Virus record (IMG/VR): IMGVR_UViG_2711768052_000002
DNA from: a virus
Lineage: Duplodnaviria > Heunggongvirae > Uroviricota > Caudoviricetes
Strand: one strand, 5' to 3'
DNA: 37,726 nucleotides
How positions within the stretch are numbered: position 1 is the first letter of the stretch; each line of letters begins with the position of its first letter. The translations under genes and the position numbers were made by a program. Below are positions 143 through 8,783 of this stretch, one piece after another. The notes under the pieces were generated by a model. The model had not been told where the DNA came from, did no database searches, and saw only the letters and a program-made list of their open reading frames with translations.

Positions 143-871
143 ATGATTTTTAGGGATAGCTTGAGAGTATTACCTTATGGTCGAGTAGATAATGATTTCT
201 TCCAGATAGAAGAAAGACGTTCATGGAATGCAGGGCGATATTATTGGTCTAATAGAAGGATTTTTGGTTATATTGGAATTACTCAATCCAGTAATAAAGA
301 GCTGAAAGATAAGTCGGGGAGAGAGGGATTCATAAGAAACCAGGCTGCAAGAGAACTGAAAACTATTATATCTAATTTGTTAACTGAACTTGCTGATAGA
401 TTTTTTGGTTCACGTTCTGATGACCGTAAAGAGCTTTTAGAACAAGTTAAGCGTGAAAAAGAGTTAAGAAAATCTGCTCAACAACAAGCTCGAAAATCAA
501 CACAAAAAAGTTTTTCAGAAGCTTTGAAGAATCAGACACCAGTTCTTGATGCTTCCTTGGAGGCTGTTAAAAGGCTGAAAACTAAGCTTGATAAAACTGA
601 TGGTTCGTTAGATTTAAACTATCTTAAAATTATAGACAGTGATCTTACAAACTTAGATGCGTTGCGCAGTGAAATTAAAACGCCTATCAAACCTCCAAAA
701 CTTGGAATGTATGAAGAGAAATATAGAGACTACAGAGATAAATTTAATGAGTTCTCTGCGTATATTCTACAAATGAAGTTAGCAATTAATAAACTTGATT
801 CTGAATTAAATAAACTTGAGCCTTCATTGTCAGCGAAAAATCACCTTGAAAAAAAATCAAGGTATTATTAA
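143..871 (+). CDS. N-terminal coiled-coil/sensor-like segment of a histidine-kinase-like protein (probably the 5' part of one gene continued in 816..1862 after a frameshift)
   Basis: ATG at 143 follows an in-frame stop at 14..16; Lys/Glu-rich heptad-like sequence (ELLEQVKREKELRKSAQQQARKS); ORF ends right after an A8 run (~848..855) while the downstream histidine-kinase frame is already open from ~810. Confidence 0.45.
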   Translation: MIFRDSLRVLPYGRVDNDFFQIEERRSWNAGRYYWSNRRIFGYIGITQSSNKELKDKSGREGFIRNQAARELKTIISNLLTELADRFFGSRSDDRKELLEQVKREKELRKSAQQQARKSTQKSFSEALKNQTPVLDASLEAVKRLKTKLDKTDGSLDLNYLKIIDSDLTNLDALRSEIKTPIKPPKLGMYEEKYRDYRDKFNEFSAYILQMKLAINKLDSELNKLEPSLSAKNHLEKKSRYY

Positions 872-1862
872 TTCTAAACTAACTAAGTTTAATAACACGA
901 TAGAGGAGAAGATACATTCTCTTTTAAAAAAATGGGCCGATGAAATAAAGGTTGATCGAAGTGATTATTATGCTAAAACTATATCAGTTGTTGATTCAAT
1001 AGATAATGATTCACAAATTGAAAATGTGTTTAATTTGCTCGATAGTTTATATGTTGAGTCAGTTGATACCCTAACTTTCAAATATCAATCAATAATAAAA
1101 GGTCTCGATAGATTATTTGAAGGTATAAACTTAGATTCAGCATTCTCATTATCTGAAGAAGAACGCTCATATTTTGAAGAAAAAGCTAAAAGTTTAAACG
1201 CGCTTGCACAGTTAGGTATTAGTGTTGAGATAATATCTCATGAACTTGAAGAAATGGATTCTATGGTAACCAGAGGACTAAACTCTCTTCCTACTTCTGT
1301 AAAAGAACACCCTGGTTTTTCATTGGCGTTAAATGCTCACAGATCGCTTACTCAACAAATACGTTTCTTATCACCTTTGAAAATATCAGGTTATCAATCC
1401 AGGCAGAGAATAACTGGAAAAAATATCATGGATTATGTCCTGAAGTTCTTTGGGGAGCGTTTCGAACGGCAACGAATAACTATTGAATTTAGTGAAGAGT
1501 TTAAGCAAATCGCAATAACAGATATACCATCAAGGATCTATCCTGTTTTTACTAATATTATCAACAATGCAATGTATTGGGTCAGTCTGTCAAATAATAG
1601 GCTCATAAAGATTGGTTTTGTGAATTCTTTGGTTATCATAGCAAATTCTGGTCCGGCAATTGATACCGATGATATCCCGCGACTATTTGAACTATTTTAT
1701 AGCAAAAGAGCAAATGGACATGGGGTAGGTCTGTATCTATGTCGAGAAAACCTTGCTGTTGCACATCATAAAATATGGTATTCAGAACCTGATGAAGGCG
1801 ATAACTATTTAATAAAAGATGGCGCTAATTTTGTGATCCAGTTCAATGGAGTGGAGTTCTAA
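816..1862 (+). CDS. histidine kinase catalytic core (HisKA-like H-box + HATPase_c/GHKL ATPase)
   Basis: H-box-like IISHELEEMDS; N-box-like FTNIINNAMYW; G1/F/G2 region ANSGPAIDTDDIPRLFELFYSKRANGHGVGLYLCRENL. Track start is a TTG; the first ATG in this frame is ~145 codons in, so the true N-terminus is probably supplied by ORF 143..871. Confidence 0.6.
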   Translation: MSLHCQRKITLKKNQGIINSKLTKFNNTIEEKIHSLLKKWADEIKVDRSDYYAKTISVVDSIDNDSQIENVFNLLDSLYVESVDTLTFKYQSIIKGLDRLFEGINLDSAFSLSEEERSYFEEKAKSLNALAQLGISVEIISHELEEMDSMVTRGLNSLPTSVKEHPGFSLALNAHRSLTQQIRFLSPLKISGYQSRQRITGKNIMDYVLKFFGERFERQRITIEFSEEFKQIAITDIPSRIYPVFTNIINNAMYWVSLSNNRLIKIGFVNSLVIIANSGPAIDTDDIPRLFELFYSKRANGHGVGLYLCRENLAVAHHKIWYSEPDEGDNYLIKDGANFVIQFNGVEF

Positions 1863-1863
1863 T

Positions 1864-3612
1864 ATGACAGTGGCAAATTATAATTCTCTTGTCCAGAAAA
1901 CTTTCTGCGAAAATGCAATTCGTTCCGTTGTCATGATTGATGACGATTTTCTGACGTATTCTGAATCAATCAGGGCGTTGAATAACGAAGTTGATTTAGA
2001 CTACAACAAAATTGACTCATCTAAACGAGCCGCTACTCTTGAGAGCTTTTTTCAATCTAAAAATATGATTTGTGATGTTGACAATGGTTCTGTTAATTTC
2101 GATGTGGATCGGATTAGAAAATCAGATCTTATTATTGTAGATTATCATCTTGATAATAATGCACCTGATAAAACACTTAAACCATTACAAGATTTGAAAG
2201 ACTCCGATCATTTAAATATGATTGTAATATATACTAGAGAGAATTTAGAAACGGTTTGGATGCAGATATCATCGACTCTCAAAGGTGCTCTGGATATCAA
2301 CAGCTTGATCATTGACTACGATAATGAAGATGTCCAAAGTTATTGGGAAGACGTTGTATTACCGAACTTAAATGATAATGGTAATAAAGCTCTCACAAGA
2401 GATGAAACAATAGCCTATATTAAAGACAGTAAGCCTTGTAGAAGAATTAAAAGATTAATACATGATGATGCTGTGTTGGAGGATCAAAAGGATAAAAACT
2501 TCATTGCAAAAATGATTGCAGAATATGCTGTGTCTAGAAATGCAATTATTTCTAGCAACACATCTGGCAATGTCATTCGGGGTGATGAAAGCGGAGTAAA
2601 ATGGATTCAATGTGGTAATATCTTTGTCTCCCTATTTCATAAGGTTCAAGATGATCATGAAAACGATGGAGATAGGATTTGGCAAACTCTCAATGATTCT
2701 CTCATTGAATGGAAACCATCTTATTATCAGTTAATAAAATCTGAAATTCAGAATGCAATCGAAGCTGAGGCTTTATCTTTTGTAAATCATTTGGCTAACG
2801 ATCATTACGGTCAAGCTGCGTGGTTAAATGAGATATTAAAATCAGACTCGCCTGATATTAGATGTAGAAATATTGACTTTGTATTTGGTAATTTATCAGA
2901 AGAGCTTTATCAAAGACTTAAAAATAATAATACGCTGGATGAATTTATCAAAAGTGTTTTTGATAGCTATTCAAATGAATACGCTAACAGCGGAGTTGCT
3001 GCATTGCTCCAATATTGCTCTTCAAAAATGGATCTGCCATCAAATAATGATACTTATCACGAAATGTATCATGCTTTAAATATGAATTTGTCTTCAAAGA
3101 ATTTTGAAGATGGTCATATTTCTACTGGCACTATTTTCTTTGATACAGAGTCGAACAAATGGTATTTATGTGTATCTGCGGCATGTGATTTGGTTCCTAC
3201 TCAGGGTAACGACCCTCACCATGTAAGATTAAGTCCGCACAGGCTCATTAAAGTTCTGGAGCTTTTTAACGCCAGTCAGAGTAAAGCATTGCCATTTGCT
3301 GAACATTCGAAATATATATATGTAATGCATAAAAATCAAAGAAAATATCTCTCTATTTTCGAAGGGGATAAAACGCTTCCTGTTGTTGATTATATGGTGG
3401 TGTTGAATCATGGAACAACAGTTGATGGCGAAGAAAAAAATATTATTTCTGCCGTGTTTTTAAGTAATATGGATGGCAACGTGCAAAATGTTCCTGTCCG
3501 ACTCAAACTTAAATCTCAACTGAGAACTGGTTATGCAGAAAGATATCAGGCTATAGCGTCTCAGTATAGCTCAAGGATTGGTGTGGATTATGTATCAATG
3601 ATGCTACCATAA
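1864..3612 (+). CDS. receiver (REC)-like domain protein with ~430-aa C-terminal domain of unknown function (candidate effector)
   Basis: N-terminal receiver-like motifs: VVMIDDDF (acidic pocket), DLIIVDYHLD (candidate phospho-Asp), MIVIYTREN (conserved Thr). Start placed at ATG 1864, just after the upstream stop with GGAG upstream; track alternative is ATG 1846. No recognisable motif in the C-terminal two thirds. Confidence 0.55.
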   Translation: MTVANYNSLVQKTFCENAIRSVVMIDDDFLTYSESIRALNNEVDLDYNKIDSSKRAATLESFFQSKNMICDVDNGSVNFDVDRIRKSDLIIVDYHLDNNAPDKTLKPLQDLKDSDHLNMIVIYTRENLETVWMQISSTLKGALDINSLIIDYDNEDVQSYWEDVVLPNLNDNGNKALTRDETIAYIKDSKPCRRIKRLIHDDAVLEDQKDKNFIAKMIAEYAVSRNAIISSNTSGNVIRGDESGVKWIQCGNIFVSLFHKVQDDHENDGDRIWQTLNDSLIEWKPSYYQLIKSEIQNAIEAEALSFVNHLANDHYGQAAWLNEILKSDSPDIRCRNIDFVFGNLSEELYQRLKNNNTLDEFIKSVFDSYSNEYANSGVAALLQYCSSKMDLPSNNDTYHEMYHALNMNLSSKNFEDGHISTGTIFFDTESNKWYLCVSAACDLVPTQGNDPHHVRLSPHRLIKVLELFNASQSKALPFAEHSKYIYVMHKNQRKYLSIFEGDKTLPVVDYMVVLNHGTTVDGEEKNIISAVFLSNMDGNVQNVPVRLKLKSQLRTGYAERYQAIASQYSSRIGVDYVSMMLP

Positions 3613-3684
3613 TTATTATATTTTAGGCGTGGTGATTTTTTTTTCGCCATGCCTATTTTATATTTATCATCACAATGATGTTGT

Positions 3685-4101
3685 TTATTTTTGTTTAAGT
3701 CTTCTAAGCTTCATGCATTCTAATGAGAATAATAATAGAGTTGTGCTGTATATAAAGCCAGAGTTAGTTAATAACTTTAAATTTAATGCTTCAGGATTTT
3801 CACTGAGAAAGTGAAAGGCATAAACTAAGTATACAGCTAAAGTAGCCGTTCCAATTGTTGGTCCAATATCGCCTTGATCATGAGGTTCAAGGTTTACATT
3901 GAACTTGAAGATTAGCCATTCAAATCCCCAAGTAAAAAAAACAACTAATATCATGGCTGCGAATAATTTCGCGATGTTATCTGCTGATGGATTCATCAGA
4001 ACAGATTGTTTCTGAAAAAATTCACAAAGTGAGAGTCCGAAAAAAATAAAAAAAAGTGGTCTGGAACTAAATTTTTCAAAAACTTTGAATAGGGTTTCCA
4101 T
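3685..4101 (-). CDS. small integral membrane protein, hypothetical
   Basis: 138-aa ORF with 3-4 hydrophobic stretches (LFFIFFGLSL, AAMILVVFFTWGFEWLIF, TATLAVYLVYAF, IYSTTLLLF); AT-rich; convergent with the kinase/receiver pair. Confidence 0.45.
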   Translation of the reverse strand: METLFKVFEKFSSRPLFFIFFGLSLCEFFQKQSVLMNPSADNIAKLFAAMILVVFFTWGFEWLIFKFNVNLEPHDQGDIGPTIGTATLAVYLVYAFHFLSENPEALNLKLLTNSGFIYSTTLLLFSLECMKLRRLKQK

Positions 4102-4139: not shown

Positions 4140-5411
4140 TTAGGCTACCAGAGCATTTGATCTTTGAGCTTGAACGTAATCACTCCACCATTGCATCAAA
4201 CTCTGTCGCTCTATCAGATATTCTGCACGATTGTATGCTGCGATAATTTCATCTTTTTTCGAGTGGGCAAGCGCTGCCTCAAGAACTTCAGCTCTGAATT
4301 TACCAGACTCCTCTGCCGCTGTTCGTGCAATAGAACGCATACCGTGAGCTACAAGCTCGCCTCCGAACCCCATTCGGATGATAGCTGCGTTGGCTGTTTG
4401 TTCATGCATATGATTAAGAGGCGCTTTTATGCTGGGGAAAACCCATTCTCTATGCCCACTTATTGATTTCATTAATTCAAGGATGCGCAAAGCTTCTTTA
4501 CTCAAAGGAACTTTGTGAAGCTTTTTCATTTTCATGAAATCAGCAGGAATGTTCCAAATGCTGTTGGTTGTATCAATATCAGACCACCTTGCGCGAACGG
4601 CTTCACCCGGACGAACCCATGTCAACAATTGCCATTCAATTAGCATACGTGTTTCCAACCGGATTGACGCATTCGTCAAAGATTCCATAAACCTTGGCAA
4701 TTCGCTTGGGGGAAGGGCAGGCATATTTTGCTTTTTTGGTTTACTGAATCTTTGACCAAGGTTGTCAGCCGGGTTGAACTCAATAAGTTCTTCAGTAGCT
4801 GCCCACCGGAAGATTTCATTCAGACGTGAAATGATACGGCGTAGAGTTTCCAATACGCCTCGTTGCTCAATAGGATCAAGGTGTTGTTTTAAGAGCTTAG
4901 GTCGGATCTCATTGATAGGGACATTACCCAGACCGGGAAAGACATTTCTCTCTAAGCTGCGCCAGATGTCTGCTGCATGGTCTTGTGAGATACCTGATGT
5001 CTTTACCTTCTCATCTAACCATTTCCGCGCTACGGCTTGGAGAGTGTGCTCAGTAGCACTCTTTAATGCCTTCGCCTTATCGTTGTTATGGATTTGGGGA
5101 TCAACACCATTTGCCAGAAAGGAGAGATATTCATCACGTAAGGCTCTGGCTCTTGCAAGGGTAAGGTGAGGATATGTCCCAAGGCTCATTTTGGTTCTTT
5201 TCTTGCTCACTGGTACTGCATACCTGAAATACCAATTTTTCTTGCCTCCTTTCGCCAAAGGAGCGATTCGTAGAATCAGACCATCACCGTCAAACAAGTT
5301 GATTTCTTTATCGGCTGGCTTGGTGCTTTTGATTTCAGTGTCAGTGAGCTTCTTAGCGATTTTTGCCATTTTGGGACCCTCGGTTTTTGGACCCTTCTTA
5401 GTGGGTCCCAT
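4140..5411 (-). CDS. int: tyrosine-type site-specific integrase, P4 family
   Basis: N-terminal arm-binding signature LTDTEIKSTKP...LFDGDGLILRI...KNWYFRY typical of P4/CP4-57 IntA-type integrases; C-terminal catalytic region (HGMRSIARTAAEESG, AAYNRAEY); sits next to the ssrA 3' fragment. Confidence 0.9.
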   Translation of the reverse strand: MGPTKKGPKTEGPKMAKIAKKLTDTEIKSTKPADKEINLFDGDGLILRIAPLAKGGKKNWYFRYAVPVSKKRTKMSLGTYPHLTLARARALRDEYLSFLANGVDPQIHNNDKAKALKSATEHTLQAVARKWLDEKVKTSGISQDHAADIWRSLERNVFPGLGNVPINEIRPKLLKQHLDPIEQRGVLETLRRIISRLNEIFRWAATEELIEFNPADNLGQRFSKPKKQNMPALPPSELPRFMESLTNASIRLETRMLIEWQLLTWVRPGEAVRARWSDIDTTNSIWNIPADFMKMKKLHKVPLSKEALRILELMKSISGHREWVFPSIKAPLNHMHEQTANAAIIRMGFGGELVAHGMRSIARTAAEESGKFRAEVLEAALAHSKKDEIIAAYNRAEYLIERQSLMQWWSDYVQAQRSNALVA

Positions 5412-5534
5412 TCAGGGTGCCATAACTCGTAGTTCTCAGCAATTCTCACTGGACGACAATAGACGTAAAAAAGCCCGCAGAGCTTGTGCTGTGTGGGCTT
5501 AGTAGACTTCATTGAACTTCAAACAACTAAAAAG

Positions 5535-5567
5535 TGGTGGAGCTGGCGGGAGTTGAACCCGAGTCCG
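5535..5567 (-). other. ssrA: 3'-terminal fragment of ssrA (tmRNA) - putative att core repeat
   Basis: Minus-strand reading CGGACTCGGGTTCAACTCCCGCCAGCTCCACCA matches the recalled 3' acceptor/T-arm end of E. coli tmRNA (one mismatch) including CCA; flanking sequence on the 5' side does not continue as tmRNA, so only the terminal ~33 nt are present. Confidence 0.75.
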
Positions 5568-5578
5568 AATTTTTTTAA

Positions 5579-6397
5579 CTATCTGTTTTTATTAAAATCA
5601 TGCTCATCCATAAAATCTGCGTAGCTTTTGCGTATCCTTTCTAGGACAACCTGTGTCCAACACTGTTTGGATGTGAAAAGAATATCTATGTCTAAAATTA
5701 GATCTAAGCCATTTCCGTAAAAAGATACGCTCTTAAATTCTGTTGTGAAAATTTTCTTTCTTTTCTTATTGTTTACATCTCTATATTCAAGGATAAGGTC
5801 CGGCCCTATAAACGATGAGATGGAGGTGGTTACAAGATAATTACCAATTAATTCTGGCACCAATGGGGGAAATGGTATGGTTGTTTTCTCTTTGTCTTTA
5901 ATATTCGGAGTTATAAATTCTATCAAAGTTCCTTTTTTTTGAAAGCTATTATGTTTTTGCGGACCTCTACCAAAAATATCAACATTCAAGAAGTTATTGT
6001 TGTCTTTGATTGTAAAAAACTCTTCATTTTGCAAAAATATCTCATGTGATTTTTGTGTGTTGTTATTATCTATTTTGAATTTGTTTATCTTAATATATTT
6101 CTCATACTCTTCAGACCAGTAGTGATTTATTTTTATAGCTGGGCCAAGACCTATGTTGAGAAGCTCTATATTCAAAGTGGTTGGTGATATTTCTATGTTC
6201 TTAAATAATTTCAAGTTATCTCTGTGCATCCATGTGAATTTTGTATTCTTAGGTAAAATTTGAGGTTTGTTTGAAATTATTCTTTGCTGCCATGTTTGGT
6301 ACATTGCAAAAAATGCAATTATGACACTTATTATGGCTATGAAGTCGGTAGTGGTAATTGAGTAACCTAACATTTTTATTAAATCTGTGTTATTCAT
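5579..6397 (-). CDS. hypothetical membrane-anchored protein (single N-terminal TM helix), AT-rich cargo gene
   Basis: 272-aa ORF; N-terminal hydrophobic helix FIAIISVIIAFFAMY then a Lys/Asn-rich soluble domain; located between the ssrA att fragment and the prophage integrase. Confidence 0.5.
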   Translation of the reverse strand: MNNTDLIKMLGYSITTTDFIAIISVIIAFFAMYQTWQQRIISNKPQILPKNTKFTWMHRDNLKLFKNIEISPTTLNIELLNIGLGPAIKINHYWSEEYEKYIKINKFKIDNNNTQKSHEIFLQNEEFFTIKDNNNFLNVDIFGRGPQKHNSFQKKGTLIEFITPNIKDKEKTTIPFPPLVPELIGNYLVTTSISSFIGPDLILEYRDVNNKKRKKIFTTEFKSVSFYGNGLDLILDIDILFTSKQCWTQVVLERIRKSYADFMDEHDFNKNR

Positions 6398-6436
6398 GTG
6401 AAATCTCTACTTCCAATCAGAAGTAGAGATTATCAT

Positions 6437-7612
6437 TTAATTAGTACAATTTATCAAATGATTGTGTGTGCTATTGTTATCATAATCTTTAAGATAACGG
6501 CCGTAATGCCTAAATAGCATTTCTGGTCCTTTATGCCCCATTTGAGCGGCTAACCAAAACAAATTAACACCTTGACTAATGTGTTTTGTAGCAAATGTAT
6601 GTCTAGTTTGATAAGGATTACGGTAACGGACTCCGGCTTTACGTAAAGTTGGCACCCATGCCTTCTTTCTTATGGCGTCTGCGCTGGCCCAAGGTTTATT
6701 GGTTTTTGGATCTTCAAAGACAGTCGCGTCCTTCATGAAAGTGAACGGTTTCTGATTTATTAGTGCAGACATTGCTTCATCTGTCAGTTCAACTTTTCGA
6801 GTACCTGCTTTTGTTTTGGTACCTTTGATTACACCAACAACACTGGCGCTCTGGACGTGGGCAGTCCTCCCTACAAAGTCAATATCACGCCATCTAAGGG
6901 CACATAATTCAGAACTACGCAGACCTGTATTTATAGCGAACCGGAACAGATTCTCCCATTGTTTGTTTCCGGCTGCTGCTAGTAATGCATCAACTTCTGC
7001 TGGTGATAGCGGATCAACCACGTAGCGGCTTTCTGCTTCTGACTTATCACTTTGGTAGCGCGAAGCAGTTACCAACGATACGGGGTTAATTTGAAGTACC
7101 CCATCGGTTACGGCTTCATCAAGTGCTGACCGCAGGAAAGATAACTGGTTGCGAATTGTTTTTAAGGTCGTTTTCTGGCTTTGAATCCACGCTTTCAGGA
7201 TTGCTGGTGTTAATTCACTTGCAGAGCAAATGTGGAGTGAGGCTAACGCACTACGGCATTTTTTATAACCACCAATCGTAGAGGGTGAAAGTTTTCTCGT
7301 TTCGCAGATTTCAAGGTATTCGTCCAAGTACATTTTTACCGTTTTGCCTGCAGCAGCATTACCAAAAATTTTCAAACGAGCAGAACGGGGAAAATATTCC
7401 GCATAAATGAATGTTCCCCTTTCGATCTTATTATGAATTTCACCGAGTGTGCGCTCGGCGTATTTTATGTTCTTTGGTGTTACTTCCAGATTGGAAAGAG
7501 GCTCACGACATTTAACTCCTTTGTAGGTGAAAGTTATATTGATCGTTTCGCCCTGGCGGTGTTTCCTGATTGTTACGCCGCGCGGTAGTTTGAGCAGTTT
7601 TGTCTGGCCCAT
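6437..7612 (-). CDS. int: tyrosine-type integrase, lambda family
   Basis: 391 aa; catalytic-domain motifs (GLRSSELCALRWRDID, HKGPEMLFRHYGRYL with catalytic Tyr context, RHTFATKHI); 5' end overlaps the upstream xis-like ORF as in lambda. Confidence 0.9.
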   Translation of the reverse strand: MGQTKLLKLPRGVTIRKHRQGETINITFTYKGVKCREPLSNLEVTPKNIKYAERTLGEIHNKIERGTFIYAEYFPRSARLKIFGNAAAGKTVKMYLDEYLEICETRKLSPSTIGGYKKCRSALASLHICSASELTPAILKAWIQSQKTTLKTIRNQLSFLRSALDEAVTDGVLQINPVSLVTASRYQSDKSEAESRYVVDPLSPAEVDALLAAAGNKQWENLFRFAINTGLRSSELCALRWRDIDFVGRTAHVQSASVVGVIKGTKTKAGTRKVELTDEAMSALINQKPFTFMKDATVFEDPKTNKPWASADAIRKKAWVPTLRKAGVRYRNPYQTRHTFATKHISQGVNLFWLAAQMGHKGPEMLFRHYGRYLKDYDNNSTHNHLINCTN

Positions 7613-7791
7613 TTTGCAACCTCACTAAGATCAATCCACCTCTCCTTAACGCCTTCAACCTTTAAAACCTGAACACCTTCACGCCAAACACCGCGCTGTA
7701 CACGTTTGTTTATTGCTTCAGGAGTTTCGCCAGTTTCTTTGCAATAAGTTGAGATTGGAACACAATCGAGGTTCAGCATATGTTTCTCCAC
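7573..7791 (-). CDS. xis: excisionase (Xis-like) / AlpA-type DNA-binding protein
   Basis: 72-aa basic protein directly upstream of and overlapping int; winged-helix-like segment ETPEAINKRVQRGVWREGVQ resembles the lambda Xis pattern. Confidence 0.6.
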   Translation of the reverse strand: MEKHMLNLDCVPISTYCKETGETPEAINKRVQRGVWREGVQVLKVEGVKERWIDLSEVAKWARQNCSNYRAA

Positions 7792-8348
7792 TTAGCCCGC
7801 TGCACACGGGCAGTAATATCAAATTTCAGTGCATCTTGTCGGAATAAACCTCTGCCAGATAGCAGAAACATATTTTGCCTGAGGGCGGGCATCAGCCAGA
7901 GCACCTCTGCAGGGGCGGTTAGTTTCTCCACAAAACAGAGAAGAACACCTGCGGTAGTCACTGCCGGATGGATTGGGTTATGAGCCCATCGTCCGGTGAT
8001 GCTCTTCTCTGTTTTGTAAAAATGATGGTACCAGCCGGAAGCAAGGGTACAAGCTGGTACCGCCAAGACTACACACAGCATAAAGTTGTGGTGCCGGGTG
8101 CCTCCCGGTGCCTGGCGAAGGTTGCACACCAGGCGGGTGGGTATCCACAGAAGGTCGACTGTCAGCCTCAACCTTAACCCGCGTGCGCTGAGCCGCATTC
8201 ACCACAACGCTAAGGATTCTCTCTGGTTGAAAATACTTAGCTGTTATGTGCCTGCTTTTAGCCACATCAGGCGAGGTGGACCTAGTTATTCCCCAACAAC
8301 AAGGATTCGGTTAATCTGGTTATCCCCAACAACGCAAAAGGAAAAGAA

Positions 8349-8783
8349 ATGTCCGGTAATATCTATACGCTGTACAAATCCCACTGTGAAAATGTTGGAA
8401 AGTATCGGGGCATTGAAATCAGTGGGGTAGTGTCATCAGTCGAAATAAGCAAAGTTGAATCAAGGGCAACATTACTTACTCTTTTGGACCTTGTCTTACA
8501 TGAGCACCGGAAGAAATTCGGCACTCCCTATAATCAGTTGAATGGGAAAAAGGCTCTGGTTCACCTTATTCTGATGAAGCATCACTGGATGCCAAAACAG
8601 ATTAATGAGATGAAATTTGATGAACTTCTTCTTTCAATTCAGGATGAACTCACACTTGATAAAATAAGCGTAACCGCCCAGAAATTTTTAGATTATCGAG
8701 ACTGGAGATCACAAATTCATCACTTTGATGATTTTGACGAAAATGAATGGGATCCTAATTTGTCTGCACAATATCTAAAGTAA
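8349..8783 (+). CDS. hypothetical protein (AT-rich, early-left region)
   Basis: 144-aa ORF starting 8 nt after a GGAAAAG purine-rich stretch; no recognisable motif. Confidence 0.45.
   Translation: MSGNIYTLYKSHCENVGKYRGIEISGVVSSVEISKVESRATLLTLLDLVLHEHRKKFGTPYNQLNGKKALVHLILMKHHWMPKQINEMKFDELLLSIQDELTLDKISVTAQKFLDYRDWRSQIHHFDDFDENEWDPNLSAQYLK

Follow-up and report, generated by a model that had tools for sequence, protein, structure and literature searches.

A membrane-anchored protein encoded between int and attP of an ssrA-integrating lambdoid prophage is a candidate anti-phage protein whose gene reads through putative integrase arm sites

The DNA considered here, called the window, is a whole stretch of 37,726 nt from a tailed virus of the Caudoviricetes (IMG/VR record IMGVR_UViG_2711768052_000002). 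It contains a lambdoid prophage whose integrase gene is followed, on the same strand, by an AT-rich open reading frame (ORF) of 272 codons, here called ORF272, and then by an attachment core copied from the 3' end of ssrA, the gene for transfer-messenger RNA (tmRNA). In related elements, the interval between the integrase gene and the core is either empty or occupied by various genes, including anti-phage systems, and ORF272 may encode a new single-gene protein of this kind. The slot comprises three features.

5579..6397, minus strand: coding sequence (ATG start, TAG stop) of a 272-residue membrane-anchored protein of the PHROG 7259 family (ORF272)
6437..7612, minus strand: int, an ssrA-specific lambdoid tyrosine integrase of 391 residues with Arm-DNA-bind_2, SAM-like and catalytic domains (Pfam, PHROG)
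5535..5569, minus strand: att core, a copy of the ssrA (tmRNA) 3' end, with 27 nt exact and 8 nt with one mismatch

Positions 5535-5561 are the exact reverse complement of the 3' end of Escherichia coli ssrA (…GGGTTCAACTCCCGCCAGCTCCACCA), and the match extends to 5569 with one mismatch. The region 5440-5572 also matches sites annotated as 'ssrA: transfer-messenger RNA' in hundreds of E. coli genomes. The att core and the prophage integrase between which the original prediction had placed the gene are both real, the former as a 35-nt copy of the ssrA 3' end and the latter with Arm-DNA-bind_2 and Phage_integrase domains. The core lies 9-17 nt downstream of the ORF272 stop codon, and 39 nt separate the int stop from the ORF272 start.

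The ORF272 product is identical to RefSeq WP_021574737.1, and 'hypothetical protein' is its sole label in all database records found. The gene has a GC content of 0.310, as opposed to 0.430 for int, 0.457 for the excisionase gene xis and 0.537 for a late gene; the claimed contrast in composition with the neighbouring integrase therefore holds. The richness of the protein in isoleucine (12.9%), lysine (9.9%) and asparagine (9.6%) is largely a consequence of this GC content of 31%. Estimated from composition, the probability of a stop is about 0.078 per codon at GC 0.31, and an open run of 272 codons would arise by chance with a probability of about 1e-10. With its start and stop codons and its conserved homologues, ORF272 is a real, conserved gene.

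The protein is built from an N-terminal membrane helix and a beta-rich body that carries one strongly conserved motif.

6290..6349, minus strand: transmembrane helix, codons ~17-36, with a conserved small-residue face (S24, A28) (hydropathy, AlphaFold, conservation)
6137..6157, minus strand: invariant N-I-G-L-G-x-A beta-hairpin motif, codons 81-87 (alignment)

The sole hydrophobic segment spans approximately residues 14-36 (mean Kyte-Doolittle value of 2.13 for the 19-residue stretch starting at residue 14), and a Kyte-Doolittle scan of the protein found no second one. The segment falls within a helix modelled at residues 3-42, in agreement with the single N-terminal transmembrane helix predicted originally. 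Structure prediction, which had been proposed as a check, was carried out with AlphaFold and yielded, besides this helix, a beta-rich body (residues 47-243) with an internal helix (179-191) and a C-terminal helix (247-266). The mean predicted local distance difference test score (pLDDT) of the model is 76, and its predicted template modelling score (pTM) is 0.68. No convincing fold neighbour was found for the protein, and the PDB sequence profile search gave nothing usable. Among 228 relatives, the 15 residues before the helix contain on average 0.39 lysines and arginines and the 15 residues after it 3.56; the C-terminal flank is the more positive one in 218 of them. By the positive-inside rule, this bias would put the N-terminus in the periplasm and the beta-rich domain of about 230 residues in the cytoplasm. 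The predicted topology is thus N-out/C-in, with the globular domain at the cytoplasmic side.

The only library match of the protein is PHROG 7259, a family of unknown function (E = 1.2e-35, residues 17-272 against profile positions 13-277 of 277). Pfam returned sub-threshold noise only (Phage_TAC_8, DUF4280) and NCBIfam nothing usable. Homology to housekeeping or phage-structural proteins, which the original prediction had named as grounds for dropping it, was not found in the Pfam, PHROG, PADLOC, NCBIfam and PDB-profile searches, and a literature search on the RefSeq accessions or PHROG 7259 found no paper. Word-indexed searches recovered 35 clusters from Enterobacteriaceae and Bordetella, all labelled 'hypothetical'. 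An exhaustive profile search recovered 1,542 representatives at 50% identity with E <= 1e-3, 737 of them with E <= 1e-10, and named members of this wider family come from Shewanella, Vibrio, Methylomonas, Burkholderia and others. Most relatives are about 240 residues long and match only profile positions 1 to ~235, lacking the C-terminal tail.

ORF272 bears the full signature of the family: the N-terminal helix, Q-R…S-Y-K-P, the N-I-G-L-G-x-A hairpin, a tryptophan, a proline and D-I-G-G. Invariant positions are R39 and N81-I-G-L-G-x-A87, the hairpin motif being present in the form N-x-G-x-G-x-A in 169 of 176 relatives. S24, A28, Q38, P45, W94, P177, D207 and G210 (D207-x-x-G) are nearly invariant. 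Scored segment by segment, protein-level conservation is highest in the helix with the juxtamembrane stretch (Q38-R39…P45) and in the NIGLGxA hairpin, while residues 46-75, 100-150 and 211-240 vary strongly. The small residues conserved on one face of the helix hint at packing between helices, either by oligomerisation or by docking on a membrane partner. Two structural resemblances were considered and not borne out. The combination of short basic leader, G/A cleavage site and conserved hydrophobic helix that marks the class III signal peptide of type IV pilins and archaellins is not present. For a CARDB/Ig-like beta-sandwich, only two of the 90 relatives searched gave a Pfam match, which at E ~0.012 did not reach the gathering score. 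The likeness of the NxGxGxA hairpin to the CARDB/Ig-like fold serves as a lead only.

In all loci examined, the distant relatives are accessory cargo. In Shewanella algae (L013, 4720-8855), the family member is the first gene after a divergent integron-type integrase of 320 residues and is followed by small genes on the same strand, an arrangement that looks like a chromosomal integron cassette array. Further members sit in an island alongside Mrr, a resolvase and Fic (L015), close to prophage lysis genes and a PAAR toxin-immunity module (L016), within a conjugative element (L011) and following a decayed P4-type integrase (L009). No family member was found on plasmids, and no distant member in sequenced phages.

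Among closer relatives, the position of the gene is fixed. E. coli and Klebsiella contigs show the order int, about 40 nt, ORF, 9-20 nt and ssrA core, which is kept in all 13 of the 17 IMG/VR contigs that reach past the ORF; the sequence of the remaining four runs out at the ORF's stop codon or close to it. In the viable lambdoid phage LLS, the order is xis-int-gene 31-attP, in which gene 31 encodes a homologue with 26% identity and the site is annotated as attP / tmRNA pseudogene. The LLS paper deduces integration at the 3' end of ssrA and contains no discussion of gene 31 (PMC12315714).

The contents of the slot were surveyed in species-level loci with related integrases, 69 of which were fetched and 65 usable. 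In 38 of the 65, the slot is empty and the int stop lies 41-161 nt from the ssrA core. Occupied slots contain AbiLi together with AbiLii (L027; E = 1.6e-103 and 4.3e-29), DarT with NADAR-DarT1 (L072, L074 and several E. coli loci such as L004; E = 1.4e-18 and 8.7e-91), or a STAND NTPase of 819 residues with a weak TPR match (L045). All identifiable cargo of the slot (AbiL, DarTG, STAND NTPase) is anti-phage. Being alternately empty or filled with validated defence systems, the slot qualifies in operational terms as a defence hotspot. Hotspots between int and att have been documented for P2 and PICI (PMC13586616). The ssrA-integrating lambdoid lineage, for which none is described in the cited hotspot literature, adds another. 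The original prediction had called the int-att interval a frequent location of lysogenic-conversion, superinfection-exclusion or abortive-infection genes. For this integrase family, the cargo found in related loci (AbiLi/AbiLii, DarT1-NADAR and the STAND NTPase) bears out the presence of abortive-infection and defence systems, and the status of ORF272 as a membrane-anchored accessory ('moron') gene is likewise supported.

Several slots contain other genes: a DUF4760 membrane protein of 312 residues (L049, 7504-8442), a protein of 268-272 residues with multiple transmembrane segments (L038:7406-8491, L051:2813-3631 and L075:7671-8489, in L038 with a 91-residue ORF beside it) and a convergent pair of 255 and 112 residues (L056, 7197-8314). 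None of these matches PADLOC, and they are candidates for further defence genes. A BLAST-based survey of the slot in E. coli was uninformative, as it gave short matches to ssrA and nothing else.

Integrases that are 83-95% identical adjoin ORFs that are only 27-45% identical, and the two measures are incongruent. Between the window and L003, which have the closest integrases, the integrases share 95% and the ORFs 31% identity; between L005 and phage LLS, the figures are 85% and 45%. This allelic pattern fits a shuffled, fast-diverging conflict gene better than a co-evolving core gene. The last ~12 integrase residues also differ among loci (…NNSTHNHLINCTN, …NSTSNTSLKKNLI and others; window 6437-6475, L003, L005, L007, L012). 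As this variable end of int holds the -35 element of the cargo promoter described below, the exchangeable cassette seems to have its left boundary within the 3' end of int.

The opposite end of ORF272 behaves differently.

5582..5652, minus strand: last ~24 codons, encoding the C-terminal helix (…WTQvvLeRIRKSYADFMDEHDFNKNR) and forming the int-proximal attP arm (DNA conservation)
5617..5639, minus strand: tandem 11-bp direct repeat AAGGATACGCA-AAAGCTACGCA, putative arm-type sites of the integrase (Int), which encodes R-I-R-K-S-Y-A (comparison)

When 15 distinct loci are anchored on the core, DNA column identity is 0.83-0.93 from -90 to -20 and about 0.5 beyond -95. The tail is thus conserved at the DNA level, synonymous sites included. 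Phages with an empty slot have an equivalent tandem repeat straight after the int stop, at the same distance from the core. The repeat varies with the integrase subfamily (AAGGAGCCGTA-AGGGAGCCGCA, AAGGAGCCACA-AAGGATACGCG or AATGCACGCCC-AATGCACGCAA), the corresponding repeat types being GAGCCGCA, GATACGCA or ATGCACG, and phage LLS also carries AAGGATACGCA-AAGGAGCCGCG on its other arm. The synonymous conservation, its abrupt onset about 95 nt from the core, the repeats in phages with an empty slot and the missing tail in the wider family all point to a constraint on the DNA, for which reason the invariant tail (IRKSYADF...) was rejected as a protein motif. The last ~24 codons do not appear to be constrained primarily by the protein, and the ORF reads through putative integrase arm sites. 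This assignment of the tandem repeats follows from hallmarks shared with the lambda P' arm and from the arm-binding domain of the integrase. The genome-wide count of the 11-mer is not above chance, and the case for arm sites is positional and comparative. The simplest history would be a single in-frame capture of the gene into the arm, after which all but the arm diverged and was shuffled.

A third copy of the 11-mer (AAAGATACGCT, two mismatches) is found in inverted orientation at 5721-5731 on the plus strand, some 90 nt into the ORF. This copy may be a further Int site or may have arisen by chance, the window-wide count being at chance level. One IMG/VR contig (L100:2305-4116) matches only residues 242-272, downstream of a partial integrase match. 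The locus probably represents a slot whose cargo differs or is disrupted and in which the translated arm has been kept.

The short interval upstream of ORF272 carries two signals that bear on its expression.

6429..6457, minus strand: sigma-70-like promoter, TTGATA-17 nt-GATAAT, straddling the int stop (motif and conservation)
6399..6435, minus strand: stem-loop between the int stop and the ORF start, with Shine-Dalgarno-like purines in its 3' arm (folding, covariation)

A -35 element TTGAnn and a -10 element rATAAT with a spacing of 17 nt occur at the promoter position in 8 of 14 loci, and weaker variants (TTGCAT, TTTGCA-18) in three more; the remaining three are off-register, since their coordinates denote the start of the match and not the start codon. 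The promoter is kept even where loci differ in the sequence around it, the last ~12 int codons included, which argues for expression of ORF272 independently of int, as judged from this conservation. The hairpin has a minimum free energy of -18.4 kcal/mol (z = -4.5). Five loci of differing sequence retain its pairing, 7 of the 12 base pairs showing compensatory changes. At gathering thresholds, Rfam detected no RNA family in the window.

The gene, its family, the geometry and contents of the slot, the overlap with the arm, the covariation of the hairpin and the conservation of the promoter are thus established, and topology, expression and anti-phage function are deduced from them. These observations suggest the following model. 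ORF272 would be accessory cargo of an ssrA-integrating lambdoid prophage, placed in a slot between the int stop and the int-proximal attP arm. In the lysogen, it would be transcribed from its own sigma-70-type promoter overlapping the end of int. Such transcripts would begin within the 5' hairpin arm, so that the ribosome-binding site stays accessible, whereas transcripts reading through from int would fold the hairpin and hide that site, preventing translation. The protein would protect the lysogen from other phages at the inner face of the cytoplasmic membrane. Its transmembrane and juxtamembrane helix would be a constant module that oligomerises or docks on a membrane partner, and its hypervariable cytoplasmic domain a specificity module that recognises a component of the incoming phage. 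The outcome would be either a block of genome entry or abortive infection at the membrane.

We give a probability of about 0.5 to the reading that ORF272 encodes a new single-gene protein for phage defence or exclusion that acts at the membrane's inner face. This reading draws on the anti-phage nature of the slot cargo, the conflict-like alleles, the accessory status of the relatives and the combination of a constant helix with a variable cytoplasmic domain. Several observations weigh against it. The function is deduced from location, architecture and evolutionary pattern alone, and the topology from the positive-inside rule alone. Guilt by location is only probabilistic, and several cargo types of the slot are functionally uncharacterised. 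The ORF272 protein matches none of the families of PADLOC-DB v2.0.0 at E <= 0.1, and 90 relatives searched against PADLOC gave four isolated weak matches, none of them recurrent. The PHROG search yielded no 'superinfection exclusion' family, and homology to experimentally characterised defence or exclusion proteins was not detected. No enzymatic or pore-forming signature was found in the protein, and one helix per protomer is a weak effector unless oligomerised. The AlphaFold model, built from a shallow alignment of 36 sequences, is disordered at residues 61-71 and 108-124. None of the 69 species-representative loci encoding related integrases carries a member of the family, in a search run with a positive control. 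The exact gene occurs in only 3 of 5,426 complete E. coli genomes and is not a dominant cargo; judging from the match pattern, a divergent allele (e.g. L003, 259 residues, 28% identity) is apparently commoner.

A more far-reaching version of the same reading is offered tentatively, as something rather doubtful. ORF272 would then represent a widespread new single-gene system without an enzymatic domain, in which the helix acts as effector or dock and the beta-domain reads phage proteins at genome entry, as a nuclease-free guard resembling SNIPE. The gene would be fused into attP, and the shared slot would be a source of further new systems, among them the multi-transmembrane protein with its 91-residue neighbour, the pair of 255 and 112 residues and the DUF4760 protein.

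The best of the alternatives, itself unlikely, is that ORF272 encodes a lysogenic-conversion or fitness factor that alters host physiology, such as envelope stress, transport, signalling or colonisation. The int-att intervals of other temperate phages do carry conversion genes unrelated to defence, as with the gtr and oac genes for O-antigen modification in Shigella and P22-like phages. AT-rich foreign cargo with its own promoter would suit such a role, as would the missing homology to defence families. However, the identifiable cargo of this particular slot is exclusively anti-phage, and alleles as divergent as these next to a conserved integrase are more characteristic of conflict genes. No glycosyltransferase, acyltransferase or other domain for envelope modification was found, and a globular domain on the cytoplasmic side, as predicted, speaks against surface modification.

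A part in the life cycle of the phage itself, in integration or excision at attP, in the lysis-lysogeny decision or in DNA entry or exit, is suggested by the strictly conserved place of the gene beside int, by its overlap with the arm-type sites and by the hairpin and promoter intertwined with the 3' end of int. This is nevertheless very improbable. Most phages with this integrase family have an empty slot (38 loci) or unrelated cargo in it, so that the protein is dispensable for integration. Genomic islands, a conjugative element and an integron-like array also contain relatives, all of them outside phages, and a membrane-anchored beta-domain protein is unlike known recombination directionality factors.

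About as improbable is a membrane-acting toxin or addiction determinant that would stabilise the prophage by post-segregational killing, under the control of the hairpin or of an unseen small RNA. Toxic membrane peptides commonly have their ribosome-binding site sequestered in this way within a strong hairpin, systems of the toxin-antitoxin type such as DarTG are among the cargo of the slot, and one distant relative lies near a SymE toxin. The 39 nt before and ~10 nt after ORF272, however, leave no room for an antitoxin ORF, the Rfam search at gathering thresholds detected no RNA family, and a protein of 272 residues with a large folded domain does not resemble the small hydrophobic type I toxins. 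That ORF272 is not a functional gene and merely arose by chance or is decaying within AT-rich junk of the int-att interval, as the atypical composition and the uniform 'hypothetical protein' label might suggest, is effectively refuted by the length of the open frame, by full-length homologues at 25-45% identity with conserved motifs in ~1,500 clusters and by the confident fold prediction.

If the anti-phage reading is correct, the family would be a new defence family of ~1,500 clusters that has neither a Pfam, NCBIfam or PADLOC annotation nor a known fold, and that spans prophages, an integron-like array, a conjugative element and genomic islands. Its constant helix and hypervariable domain would make the blocking of phages by a membrane protein free of catalytic domains testable by swaps. 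Whatever the function, the int-attP slot collects defence systems and unknown gene families and is a compact, easily mined locus for discovery. The position of the ORF over the putative arm-type sites also explains its puzzling invariant C-terminal tail, and cautions that invariant protein motifs near att sites are not automatically functional protein motifs.

Two further features flank the slot.

7573..7791, minus strand: excisionase, xis (phrog_2917; PHROG)
4140..5411, minus strand: P4-type integrase of a neighbouring island sharing the ssrA core (Pfam)

The P4-type integrase on the other side of the core makes the core the junction of two elements inserted in tandem at ssrA. These elements, a P4-type island and the lambdoid prophage, have unrelated integrases and share the single 35-nt core. 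Elsewhere, the left partner at ssrA is a ParB/recombinase island (L001, L003) or CP4-57-like ypjA (L002). In the window, the AT-rich island adjoining the P4-type integrase (143-4101, GC 0.28-0.38) encodes a 242-residue protein with a weak PD-T4-6-like PADLOC match, a histidine-kinase-like ATPase (HEF_HK/HATPase_c, 816..1862), a 588-residue Response_reg_2 protein (1846..3612) and a hydrophobic protein of 138 residues (3685..4101, minus strand). It looks like a predicted conflict system, and its genes also flank the ssrA core in E. coli KSC1031 (L004).

To the right of xis lie lambdoid immunity and replication genes, followed by head and tail genes. In the window, xis is almost directly followed by an ECs1072-family gene (8349..8783), with 7792-8348 between the two. 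Close prophages (L001, L002) hold several early-left genes at this place (yfdR, yfdQ, yfdP and others). The only part of the xis-ECs1072 region with matches in other E. coli genomes is 7903-8400, and the ORFs in a GC-rich patch (0.54, 7801-8200) are all unsupported. The interval 7792-8348 looks like a deletion or a mosaic joint.

Compared with known systems, ORF272 is unusual in having no recognisable effector domain and in having a coding sequence that doubles as putative integrase arm sites. The exclusion proteins SieA of P22, gp15 of HK97 and Imm of T4 are thought to act within the membrane or on its periplasmic side. Like them, the ORF272 product is an inner-membrane protein of a phage or prophage that comes from an accessory gene and is presumably made in the lysogen. 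In contrast to them, its domain is predicted to be cytoplasmic, and no sequence relationship was detected, PHROG 7259 being the only PHROG match.

SNIPE (PD-lambda-1) is a membrane-bound nuclease of E. coli that cleaves phage DNA during injection (PMC13190303). It has a short periplasmic N-terminus, one helix and a cytoplasmic body, as verified by PhoA and LacZ-alpha fusions; part of it has diversified to match phage proteins, and its N-terminal membrane region is the least conserved (PMC13190303). For the ORF272 product, which would also be a single-gene defence protein, a single-pass arrangement with an outward N-terminus and a cytoplasmic body is predicted from the charge bias in 218 of 228 relatives. 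Unlike SNIPE, it has no PADLOC match to PD-lambda-1, and neither it nor the 90 relatives searched with Pfam contain DUF4041 or a GIY-YIG nuclease domain. The pattern of conservation is inverted, the membrane region being the most conserved part in the ORF272 family and the least conserved one in SNIPE. SNIPE is thus an analogue in predicted topology only and not a member of the family.

As in the hotspots of P2, P4 and PICI, the slot has a fixed position, is often empty and otherwise holds interchangeable DarTG, AbiL or STAND NTPase systems, with AT-rich cargo shuffled relative to the core genes. It differs from them in its host, a lambdoid ssrA-integrating lineage. Because the slot is situated within attP, bounded by the int stop on one side and the arm-type sites on the other, the cargo ORF of this family reads through the recombination site.

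This last trait invites comparison with phage lambda, whose P' arm adjoins int and contains the tandem arm-type Int sites P'1-P'3. As in lambda attP, the repeats follow each other in a phase of about 11 bp, lie 55-80 bp from the core on the int-proximal side and are accompanied by an integrase with a dedicated N-terminal arm-binding domain (Arm-DNA-bind_2). They also keep a conserved distance from the core and covary with the integrase, as befits a lambda-type attP arm. The P' arm of lambda is non-coding, however, whereas the arm described here is translated as the ~24 C-terminal residues of a cargo protein.

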